Source of the DNA: Caldivirga maquilingensis IC-167 | GTDB taxonomy: Archaea > Thermoproteota > Thermoprotei > Thermoproteales > Thermocladiaceae | Assembly (NCBI RefSeq): GCF_000018305.1 | Contig: NC_009954.1 | Location: forward strand, 1,020,001 to 1,052,000 | Direction of reading: 5' to 3' | Length of the DNA stretch: 32,000 nucleotides | Notes under the pieces: model-generated | Seen by the model: only the letters and a program-made list of their open reading frames with translations | The model's database searches: none | Told to the model about the DNA's origin: nothing | Part shown: in pieces, positions 2,578 through 6,091 of the stretch | Position numbering within the stretch: position 1 is the stretch's first letter | Layout: the number at the start of each line of letters is the position of its first letter | Made by a program: the position numbers and the translations under genes

Positions 2578-5136
2578 ATGGCTAACGGTGAAGATTCATT
2601 AACACTTCGTGTGGCAGAGGCTAGGAGTCGTGATGTTGGTAGAGGTATTGTTAGGGTACCTATGAGATTAATGAGGAAGATAGGTATTGAGCCTGGTGAC
2701 TACGTTGAGATAAGTGGTAATAAGCGTATAGCCTATGCCCAGGTTTGGCCGGCTTACAGTGATGATGAGGATAAGGACATTATAAGGATGGATGGTTTCA
2801 TTAGACAGAACATTGATGTTTCACTGGATGACTTAGTTAAGGTTAGGAAAGCTAACCTAAGGCCGGCGCAAAGAGTAACAGTAGCCCCAGTGGGTGAGGA
2901 GATTAAGATTGATCCAGATTACTTGAAGAAATCATACCTAGTTGGTAAGCCAGTGTGGCGTGGTGCAATATTCGAACTACCCTACTATACTGGTGCATTA
3001 AAATTCATGATAACTCAAGTAATCCCAGCCCCAGCAGCCTACGTTGGCACTGAGACTGAGGTTACGATGCAGGATAAGCCAGTTCAGGAAACTAACCTGC
3101 CTCGTGTTACTTGGGAGGATATTGGTGATTTGGAGGAGGCTAAGCAGAAGATTCGTGAGCTTGTGGAGTTGCCTCTTAAGCATCCTGAGTTGTTTAGGCA
3201 TCTTGGTATTGAGCCCCCTAAGGGTGTTTTACTAATTGGCCCACCCGGTACTGGTAAGACTCTCTTGGCTAAGGCTGTTGCCAATGAGGCTGATGCGTAC
3301 TTCGTCTCCATTAATGGTCCTGAGATTGTTAGTAAGTATTACGGTGAGTCTGAGGCTAGGTTGAGGGAGATTTTCGATGAGGCTAAGCGTAATGCACCAG
3401 CAATAATATTCATTGATGAAATAGACAGCATAGCACCAAAACGCGAGGAGGTGACTGGTGAGGTGGAGAAGCGCATAGTGGCCCAATTACTAACACTAAT
3501 GGATGGTTTACAGGAGAGGGGTCAAGTAGTTGTTATAGGAGCAACGAATAGACCGGATGCAGTGGACCCAGCATTAAGAAGACCAGGAAGATTCGACAGA
3601 GAGATAAACATAGGCATGCCTGATAAGAGGGCTAGGTTAGACATATTATCCATACACACCAGGGGTGTTCCATTATGCACTCCCGACGATGTGTCTAACT
3701 GCAAGGGTGATAATTGCCCATGTAAACGTGGTGATGAGGTTGACTTAGAGAAGATAGCCGATATGACGCATGGCTACACTGGGGCGGATATAGCGGCGTT
3801 GGTTAAGGAGGCTGCAATGACTAGGCTTAGGAAGTTCCTTAACCAGAATGGTAAGGCCATAGACCTAGATAGACCGATACCCACAGACATGTTGAACATG
3901 ATTAAGGTTACTATGCAGGACTTCATGGATGCTATGAAGTACATTCAACCCACAGTATTAAGGGAAGTTATTGTTGAGGTTCCTGAGGTTCACTGGGATG
4001 ACATTGGAGGCTACGCTAGCGTTAAGCAGGAGCTTAGGGAGACTGTTGAATGGCCTATTAAGTATAGGGTTTACTTCGATGAATTAGGCGTTGAACCACC
4101 TAAGGGTATTTTGTTGTTTGGTCCTCCTGGTACTGGTAAGACTCTCTTGGCTAAGGCTGTTGCCAATGAGAGTGGTGCAAACTTCATAGCCGTCCGTGGC
4201 CCTGAAATACTGAGTAAGTGGTTTGGTGAGAGTGAGAAGGCTATTAGGGAAATATTCAAGAAAGCCAGAATGGCAGCACCATGCGTAGTATTCTTCGACG
4301 AAATAGACGCAATAGCACCAGCAAGAGGATACAGGATAGACAGTGGAGCCACTGATAGGATAGTTAATCAGATACTTGCCGAGATGGATGGAATAGCGCC
4401 ACTACGCAACGTAGTTGTGATAGCAGCCACTAATAGACCTGATATCCTTGATCCAGCATTACTAAGACCAGGAAGATTCGACAGAATAATATACGTACCA
4501 CCACCGGATAAGGAGGCTATACTTGAGATCTTTAAGGTGCATACTAGGCATATTAAACTCTCCAGTGAAGTTAATGTGCAGGAATTAGCGGACTCCATTA
4601 GGGTTAAGTCCATTGAGAAGGCTTTAACGCAACTCAATATTAGGGCACATGAGTTTAAGACTAAGGTCACCGATGCTGTTGAATCCGCCTTAACTGAGCT
4701 TGATAGCAGTGATATTAAACAGGGTGATAAGGCTAAGTTAATTGAGGCGTTAAATAATGTGAAGTCAATGCTAAGTAATGGTGAATTCAAGGGCAGTAAG
4801 GGGTTAAGGACAATGATTGATGTTGTTAAGATTCTAGTTGATGTGTTTGAAACAGCAACACTAGGGCAGGTTGACAGTGGGCTTGAATCCCTCAGGGAGT
4901 TTAAACTATACGCCTCCCTATACACTGGAGCTGACATAGCCGCTATTGTTAGGGAGGCATCAATGATGGCTTTAAGGGAGGCAATAACCTCAACGAAGAC
5001 GCCATCTGATGTGGCAGTGACCATGAGGCACTTCCAAATAGCCTTCCAGAGGGTTCAACCATCGCTAAGTGTTGAGGTGCTTAGGAAGTATGATGAAATG
5101 TCCAGGATGCTGAGTAGAGTAATCAGGGGTCTATAA
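2578..5136 (+). CDS. cdc48: Cdc48/VCP-like double AAA+ ATPase (N domain + D1 + D2) with lineage-specific insertions
   Basis: 852 aa. Two Walker A motifs [17 protein letters not shown], Walker B motifs IIFIDEIDS and [27 protein letters not shown] in both modules, and an N-terminal CDC48_N-like beta domain (RGIVRVP...IEPGDYVEI). Confidence 0.95.
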
Positions 5137-5216: not shown

Positions 5217-5230
5217 TTTAAAGTAAATAT
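5217..5230 (+). promoter_or_regulatory. TATA box for proC
   Basis: TTTAAAGTAAATAT lies about 27 nt upstream of the GTG at 5247. Confidence 0.45.
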
Positions 5231-6091
5231 ACTATAGGGGCTAGGGGTGGTTTTATTGCCAGGTACGCAATAATAGGTTTAGGTAAAATAGGCACTGCAA
5301 TAGCTAAGGCCTTAATTAAGGTAGGTATTAATCCAAGTGATATTGCTGGTTCAGTTAGGAGTGAGCATGGATTAAGGAGGACTCAAGTCGAGTTACCTGG
5401 TGTTCATGTAACGCTTAGTAATGGGGAGATTGTTAAGGATGCTGAAGTTATAGTACTGGCGGTTAAGCCTAGACAGGTAATTGACGTTATTAATGATGTC
5501 GCCGGGTTACTTAATGAGGATAAGTTAATGATTTCAGTGGTGGCTGGGCTTTCAACTAAGCTACTGGGTAGCCTCACTAAGGCTAGGGTAATTAGGACTA
5601 TGCCCAATATATCAATCCTGGAGGGTTCAGGCGTCACGGCTGTTTCAAGGGGACCTAGGGCTACTGATGCTGATGTTGAGTTCACATGCAGCTTATTTAA
5701 TGCAGTGGGTAAATGCTACATAGTTAATGAAGAGTACTTAAACGCAGTAACAGCGTTAAGCGGCTCCGGACCAGCATACGTGGCTATGATTGTTGAAGCG
5801 CTTTGGGAGGCTGGAATACTGATCGGCTTACCATCAGACCTAGCCTGGAGCCTCTCAATAGATGTAATTGAATCTGGGGCTAAGTTACTGAATTCTAAGA
5901 AGCCTTGGGAGATAATCAGTGATGTTGCTACACCAGGTGGTGTAACCATAAGTGGAATTAAGTTTGCTGAGGAGAGGGGGCTTAAGGGATTATTAATGGG
6001 TATGATTGAGTCAGCATATAGAAGGAGTACTGATGTCCAGAAGACTATTGAGGATACCATAGAGGCTAACTTAAGTAAGCTGAGAAAGTAA
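5222..6091 (+). CDS. proC: Pyrroline-5-carboxylate reductase; the true start is unresolved (open frame from 5222, first in-frame ATG only at 5528)
   Basis: The frame upstream of the tracked ORF reads ...RYAIIGLGKIGTAIAKALIKVG... (Rossmann GxGxxG), continuing into VLAVKPRQV and the C-terminal SGSGPAYV and TPGGVTI motifs typical of ProC. There is no ATG, GTG or TTG in frame between 5222 and 5527. Confidence 0.8.
   Translation, partial: SKYTIGARGGFIARYAIIGLGKIGTAIAKALIKVGINPSDIAGSVRSEHGLRRTQVELPGVHVTLSNGEIVKDAEVIVLAVKPRQVIDVINDVAGLLNEDKLMISVVAGLSTKLLGSLTKARVIRTMPNISILEGSGVTAVSRGPRATDADVEFTCSLFNAVGKCYIVNEEYLNAVTALSGSGPAYVAMIVEALWEAGILIGLPSDLAWSLSIDVIESGAKLLNSKKPWEIISDVATPGGVTISGIKFAEERGLKGLLMGMIESAYRRSTDVQKTIEDTIEANLSKLRK

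Follow-up and report, generated by a model that had tools for sequence, protein, structure and literature searches.

A genus-restricted, predicted helical insertion in the D2 lid of Cdc48 paralogue A of Caldivirga

Cdc48/VAT is the universal archaeal unfoldase. In known AAA+ hexamers the lid subdomains are located at the ring periphery, where lid helix α7 contacts the bound nucleotide, and insertions carried by the lid act as partner-binding or regulatory arms in ClpB/Hsp104, ClpC, Vps4 and dynein. To our knowledge, no lid-borne accessory domain is known in the Cdc48 family, and none has been described for it according to our literature search. Here we analysed a 32,000-nucleotide stretch of the genome of Caldivirga maquilingensis IC-167 (the window; positions 1,020,001–1,052,000 of contig NC_009954.1, assembly GCF_000018305.1), which carries a Cdc48/VAT gene, hereafter paralogue A, on the plus strand at 2578–5136. 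The encoded protein contains an insert of roughly 105 residues in the lid of its second ATPase module (D2), which is confined to the genus Caldivirga among the organisms screened. Our data confirm that this segment is real, that it is kept by selection and that it is a genus-restricted new feature of a well-known enzyme.

Architecture of paralogue A and position of the insert

The open reading frame (ORF) of paralogue A encodes 852 amino acids followed by a stop codon, and it was assigned to Cdc48/VAT on the basis of its translation, Pfam matches and alignment with VAT. The N domain, a double-psi barrel followed by a β-clam (residues 9–171; window 2602–3090), is matched by CDC48_N (residues 9–93, E = 1.2e-30) and CDC48_2 (residues 112–171, E = 1.4e-06), both over the cut-off, while AAA (2.2e-99) and AAA_lid_3 (4e-24) each match in two stretches. 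The sequence GPPGTGKT occurs twice. It forms the Walker A motif of the D1 core (G221–T228; core at 3100–3603), which also contains the pore loop K253-YYG and the Walker B pair D280–E281, and that of the D2 core (G515–T522; core at 4090–4332), which contains the pore loop K547-WFG and the Walker B pair D574–E575. Walker motifs, arginine-finger regions and both aromatic pore loops are intact. Judged by these motifs, paralogue A appears to have everything needed for an active double-ring unfoldase with VAT-like pore loops. Its N domain, two AAA modules with lids and overall collinearity place it with the type II AAA proteins of the Cdc48/VAT/p97 group, for which hexamer formation and unfolding activity are predicted.

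Among solved structures, Thermoplasma VAT (5g4f) is the closest relative and aligns with E = 3.4e-228 over query residues 6–672, the alignment being resumed at residues 782–842; p97 structures match at about 1e-190. Thus N domain, D1, D2 and both lids are shared with VAT and p97/Cdc48, as are the Walker motifs and, with VAT, the pore loops KYYG and KWFG, whereas the Caldivirga protein differs in its 105-residue D2-lid bundle, a four-cysteine loop in the D1 lid and the lack of a hydrophobic-tyrosine-X (HbYX) tail. In the VAT alignment, query residue 672 corresponds to chain residue 665 and query residue 782 to chain residue 670, so that about 105 query residues remain unmatched and the D2 lid is split at this point. 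The alignment of the family gave the same result: orthologues have five residues (RRTEG) between ..LA and YTGAD, compared with 110 in the Caldivirga protein. An earlier note made from the DNA sequence alone had proposed a helical insertion of this size at a site where canonical Cdc48 has about five residues; its size and site were both borne out. According to the MAFFT family alignment the insert extends from S673 to L777 (4594–4908; net 105 residues). The coordinates given previously, 4591–4905, agree with these boundaries to within one or two codons, but the protein string quoted with them ended at Y778 (4911).

The insert replaces the tight turn of four to five residues between lid helices α6 and α7 of D2, just before YTGAD and at a site equivalent to approximately residues 676–681 of p97 in the HMMER alignment. 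This turn, xxTEGY(T/S)GAD, is kept in all 11 insert-free paralogues of the family and is also conserved in 15 further paralogues from seven genomes of the class. What was remodelled in Caldivirga is therefore a site under strong constraint elsewhere in the class. A 218-amino-acid antisense ORF overlapping the insert (4368–5024, minus strand) was rejected as a gene, as it is a Ser/Leu-rich low-complexity mirror of the coding strand.

Distribution, selection and predicted fold

In a search with the insert alone, matches were limited to Caldivirga, namely to the source genome and four of the five other species, and none of the 56 other genomes of the order gave a match. The fifth Caldivirga genome is only 82% complete, so its lack of a match does not show that the insert is absent there. 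Genomes of the family carry two Cdc48 paralogues each. In the sister genera, the A orthologues have 745–749 amino acids, are 76–78% identical over the matched region and all lack the insert. For the class, 65 high-quality genomes were screened. Every alignment to the paralogue A query ends at approximately residue 672, complete Cdc48 open frames other than that of paralogue A range from 718 to 802 amino acids compared with 854 here, and by this length criterion no other Cdc48 frame is long enough to hold the insert. At a larger scale, a profile built from the five inserts retrieved only the Caldivirga cluster from 1.84 billion representative proteins, and a word-based search of 5.8 billion proteins returned Caldivirga entries only. 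The possibility raised in the earlier note, that the segment might be a common feature of ordinary Cdc48 orthologues, is thus answered in the negative by the alignments with archaeal paralogues.

The five Caldivirga species allowed us to compare evolutionary rates. Identity of the inserts to the source-genome copy is 63–86%. Pairwise ratios of non-synonymous to synonymous divergence (dN/dS) are 0.06–0.22 for the insert and 0.015–0.065 for the flanking lid, at dS values of 0.6–3, where synonymous sites in the insert are near saturation. In the insert, per-site differences amount to 0.18, 0.15 and 0.44 at the first, second and third codon positions, respectively. The low dN/dS together with this coding pattern of substitution indicates that the insert is translated and under purifying selection, three- to sevenfold more relaxed than that acting on the AAA lid. 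Conservation in the insert is highest among the hydrophobic core positions. On its helices 1 and 3, approximately one polar position in two is invariant, and the return helix at its end is nearly so.

These data bear directly on the idea that the segment is absent from the mature protein, either as an assembly artefact or because it is removed as an intein or as an archaeal bulge-helix-bulge intron. Crenarchaeota are known to have both inteins and introns in protein-coding genes, which gives the idea some background plausibility. However, the source genome is a single complete contig of 2,077,567 bp, and four further Caldivirga assemblies, each independent, also contain the insert, so that an assembly artefact, against which the earlier note had asked for a check, can be rejected. 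A coding pattern of substitution with dN/dS well below 1 excludes an intron. Nor did the intein fare better as a candidate: no Hint/intein or other Pfam family matched the segment at E values up to 10, the prediction is all-helical, 105 residues are too short, and the junctions lack intein hallmarks, the segment ending ..EFKL-YASL without the C-terminal His-Asn. Repeats are lacking at the flanks as well. Removal of the segment in any of these forms is effectively refuted.

Where the sequence came from was addressed by several searches. A Pfam scan of the insert at E up to 10 returned sub-threshold noise only, the best score in an ESM Atlas feature search was 0.76, which is below any useful level, and when the insert was compared with its own genome by blastn and tblastn, nothing exceeded chance. 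Comparison of the insert profile with the rest of Cdc48 by hhalign gave a probability of 0.45%, so that an origin by internal duplication of lid helices is not indicated. Tandem or flanking repeats and target-site-like duplications were not found at the insert, and the GC content at third codon positions is 0.42 in the insert and 0.43 in the rest of the gene. By these comparisons the insert is an orphan, which would have either formed de novo or diverged past recognition.

To describe the fold, a full-length AlphaFold model was built on a 16-sequence alignment. Its mean predicted local distance difference test score (pLDDT) is 66, with 75–86 in the insert. Helices were predicted at residues 667–686, 690–709, 715–734, 739–759 and 770–779, followed by α7 at 784–804. 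The first of them begins with the canonical start of α6 (..VQELAD, 4576–4593), which aligns to LRDLAR or LWRLAD in orthologues, and runs unbroken into the insert. The body of the bundle (4594–4854) was predicted both in the full-length model and for the insert alone; the latter was modelled as a three-helix antiparallel bundle with a short terminal helix (pLDDT 79.7, predicted template modelling score (pTM) 0.70). Body and return helix are connected by a linker (residues 760–769; 4855–4884) with a pLDDT below 50 at 761–767, which varies between species by substitutions and alignment gaps, including a length polymorphism. The return helix, E770–A779 (4885–4914), stands in place of the canonical end of α6 and the RTEG turn. 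It is invariant at seven of eight positions in the five species, and HMMER pairs it with the C-terminal end of α6 in the D1 lid of VAT; probably, it restores the α6–α7 packing. It is followed by α7 (4921–4989) with the Y782-TGAD motif, which occupies the sensor-2 position of classic AAA proteins; Y782, G784, A785 and D786 are invariant in the alignment.

Taken together, the models predict that the insert is a compact antiparallel bundle of three to four helices that extends α6. Of the two forms suggested in the earlier note, the helical bundle thus agrees with the models, but a long coiled coil does not. Searches for structural relatives returned a best E value of 0.2 with Foldseek against the PDB, and with VIA-align against 48,161 chains Z scores did not exceed 9.8, which is chance level for helical models. 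The matches were generic bundles, among them the Hsp70 lid, talin/vinculin and EzrA.

The C-terminal tail, paralogue B and other variable regions

Paralogue A ends in ..SRVIRGL (5113–5133), with neither Tyr nor Phe at the penultimate position; the HbYX motif is lacking, as the earlier note had read correctly. This tail is identical in the four other species of Caldivirga, and in the sister genera, too, A orthologues end in RGL. Elsewhere in the class, tails of the A type are MGG, AGL, VGL, ARG, LIR and MLS, and a penultimate Tyr or Phe was never seen among those sampled. Since all sampled A orthologues lack both HbYX and the insert, the absence of the motif is ancient in paralogue A and uncoupled from the insert. 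It is an ordinary trait of this paralogue that long predates the insert, and the earlier view of a motif lost in connection with the insertion is not supported. In other respects the paralogue A proteins of the class (about 745–750 amino acids) resemble the Caldivirga protein: orthologues are 71–78% identical, share the non-HbYX tail and, within the family, the cysteine-containing D1-lid loop. They differ in having kept the RTEG turn, and some of them carry short additions in the α5–α6 loop.

The second Cdc48 of the source genome, paralogue B, has 735 amino acids (genome positions 574,139–576,343; L002:1270-3474:-), a canonical D2 lid and the tail IFI. B-type tails elsewhere are LYV, LYL, MYY, FYA, FYV, IYM and SFM, and paralogue B accordingly carries the hydrophobic-Tyr/Phe-X feature (IFI or LYV). 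Caldivirga paralogue B ends in ..AEIFI, compared with ..(T/S)LYV in sister genera, a change of the HbYX tyrosine to phenylalanine (also in L035, G005). PAN is absent from Thermoproteales, archaea without PAN retain at least one HbYX Cdc48, and both Tyr and Phe at the penultimate position were scored as HbYX (Forouzan et al., 2012; PMC3493965). No PAN-like match was found when the source genome was searched with a Cdc48 query; in addition to the two Cdc48 paralogues, this search matched a TIP49-like frame and a 570-amino-acid AAA protein ending in ..PTGSG. Three 20S subunit genes are present in the genome. With a paralogue B that carries a hydrophobic-Phe-X tail and three 20S genes, a docking ATPase is already at hand, and paralogue B is likely the 20S partner, as judged from its tail.

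Comparison of the two paralogues showed that they share their architecture and identical D1 and D2 cores. In the D1 core (approximately residues 178–342; 3100–3603) the proteins are 100% and the DNA is 96–100% identical, and in the D2 core (approximately residues 508–582; 4090–4332) the values are 100% and 99–100%, third codon positions included. N domains, lids, linker and tails are 14–70% identical, with 14–53% in 30-codon windows for the N domain, and paralogue B differs further in its canonical D2 lid, the lack of the D1-lid loop and its hydrophobic-Phe-X tail. The cores are also homogenised in four sister-genus genomes, with a third-position identity of 1.00 in the D2 core, and more patchily in a fifth. 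This pattern indicates ongoing mosaic gene conversion between the ATPase cores of the two paralogues, with the two cores of paralogue A as the apparent tracts. Gene conversion is probably the reason that Cdc48 genes are broken internally in metagenome assemblies and left at contig ends. With the cores homogenised and N domain, lids and tail specific to each paralogue, it is the peripheral modules, the insert among them, that distinguish A from B. One metagenome-assembled genome contains a fragmentary Cdc48 frame (L019; G017:C112:1-2601) in which an A-type D1-lid Cys loop is combined with a D2 lid of the B type and the tail SLYV; this frame represents either a chimera produced by assembly across the gene-converted core or a genuine recombinant.

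Variation was also found in other lid loops. The α5–α6 loop of the D1 lid contains two cysteines in all A orthologues of the family, and five extra residues in Caldivirga add two more, resulting in the cluster C367-x7-C375-x4-C380-x-C382 (3676–3723); B-type proteins have no such loop. The four cysteines could form a zinc site or a pair of disulfides. As this cluster lies one loop before the position used by the D2 insert, the two decorations are not equivalent. In the D2 lid itself, the A-type paralogue of genus g8 (L041; G054:C1:788900-791500) has a Cys-containing insertion of about 20 amino acids in the α5–α6 loop (..KLCDEAASKDGKCKKEDV..), and the sister genera of Caldivirga have a six-residue addition of the DGNYRY type in the same loop. 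These additions mark the α5–α6 loop as a hot spot of small insertions; the α6–α7 turn, in contrast, has been changed only in Caldivirga.

Within the window, paralogue A is accompanied by a proC-like gene (5222–6091), in which the NADP-binding domain (F420_oxidored, E = 2e-16) is encoded in the open frame 5222–5527. The first ATG, GTG or TTG codon occurs at 5528, and the 187-amino-acid ORF starting there would hold the dimerisation domain only.

Possible roles of the insert

We favour, tentatively and with somewhat less than even confidence, the reading that the insert is a peripheral docking or regulatory arm on the D2 ring. Paralogue A would then be the HbYX-less member of the two Cdc48/VAT double-ring unfoldases found throughout the class, which in the genus Caldivirga only gained a new sequence of about 105 residues at the α6–α7 turn of the D2 lid. 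This sequence is predicted to fold as an autonomous antiparallel bundle, with α6 extended outward as its first helix, and the return helix would bring the chain back into α7 four residues ahead of the GAD nucleotide-sensing motif. As lids are peripheral and α7 is located at the nucleotide, the bundles would project from the D2 rim beside the nucleotide pockets. In the hexamer, six of them would be displayed in this way around the D2 ring, the orientation being deduced from known AAA+ hexamers. Such a bundle may offer a surface for a lineage-specific partner (an adaptor, a substrate or another hexamer), and its pose may respond to the nucleotide state of D2.

Similar accessory elements of the lid subdomain, which project from the ring and couple docking or regulation to the nucleotide, are the M-domain of ClpB/Hsp104 and ClpC, the β-domain of Vps4 and the stalk and buttress of dynein. 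The likeness does not extend to sequence or to any specific structural relation, the known examples belong to another AAA module and clade, and the Caldivirga insert is a compact bundle, not a long two-helix coiled coil or a β-domain. An M-domain-type insertion as in ClpB/ClpC was considered and rejected, since the insert is located in D2 and not in D1, has no Pfam match and has no homologue outside Caldivirga. The analogy is therefore functional only.

Several findings weigh against a docking or regulatory arm. The insert is confined to one genus, and the orthologues evidently function without it; it evolves three to seven times faster than its flanks; and its fold is a generic helical bundle without a specific structural relative. 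With a sample of only five sequences, all closely related, the conserved polar positions argue only weakly for a binding surface, and the neighbouring genes (epimerase, proC, methyltransferase-winged helix-turn-helix, deoxyhypusine synthase and GT4) are unrelated housekeeping genes with no functional link. The main rival explanation draws on much of the same evidence. It is possible that the insert is a tolerated lineage-specific decoration without any partner or regulatory role, which arose by a chance in-frame insertion, folded stably and was kept since its loss or destabilisation would harm folding of the lid. The distribution, the orphan status with no homologue among the 1.84 billion representatives, the faster evolution, the generic fold and the lack of a linked partner gene are all in line with this explanation, as is the fact that the hydrophobic core is best conserved. 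What speaks for an arm instead is that a dN/dS of 0.06–0.22 has been held up to near-saturating synonymous divergence and that the return helix, like many of the polar positions, does not vary. Moreover, a class-invariant turn beside the nucleotide-sensing helix was replaced, and a neutral addition of 105 amino acids at such a place is expected to be costly.

Other roles for the bundle appear less probable. Six bundles per ring might mediate contacts between hexamers, either in a resting or storage state like that formed by the ClpC M-domain or in stacked or lateral arrays. Helical bundles at the ring periphery do so in ClpC, and the predicted bundle is amphipathic with conserved hydrophobic residues in every helix. 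However, the insert alone is predicted to be a closed monomeric bundle (pTM 0.70), in which most hydrophobic positions are probably buried; we consider this role unlikely. The identical ATPase cores of A and B make mixed hexamers conceivable, in which paralogue A would tune the counts of hydrophobic-Phe-X tails and of bundles per ring. A combinatorial ring of this kind, with the insert again as a partner or regulatory arm, seems quite improbable to us. The earlier note had proposed that the insert arose to replace a lost HbYX tail and gives access to the 20S proteasome or its substrates by another route. A protein without HbYX in an order without PAN (PMC3493965), and in a genome without a PAN-like match, would fit this scenario. 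It is opposed by the A-type orthologues sampled class-wide, all of which lack HbYX and none of which has the insert, and by a paralogue B with the IFI tail in a genome with 20S genes. Compensation for a missing docking tail thus finds no support here, and we regard it as highly improbable.

In Thermoproteales, which lack PAN, Cdc48/VAT is the sole candidate proteasomal ATPase. The coexistence of a Cdc48 with and one without HbYX would represent an old, class-wide division of labour, and the missing tail is no special feature of the Caldivirga protein. What does set it apart is the bundle in the D2 lid. In ClpB, ClpC, Vps4 and dynein such insertions are key regulatory or partner-binding elements. 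A natural Cdc48 with a predicted folded bundle at a class-invariant turn may thus serve as a test case for the grafting of domains onto AAA+ rings, and Caldivirga paralogue A would allow one to ask whether the nucleotide state of D2 can be read out at the periphery of the ring.

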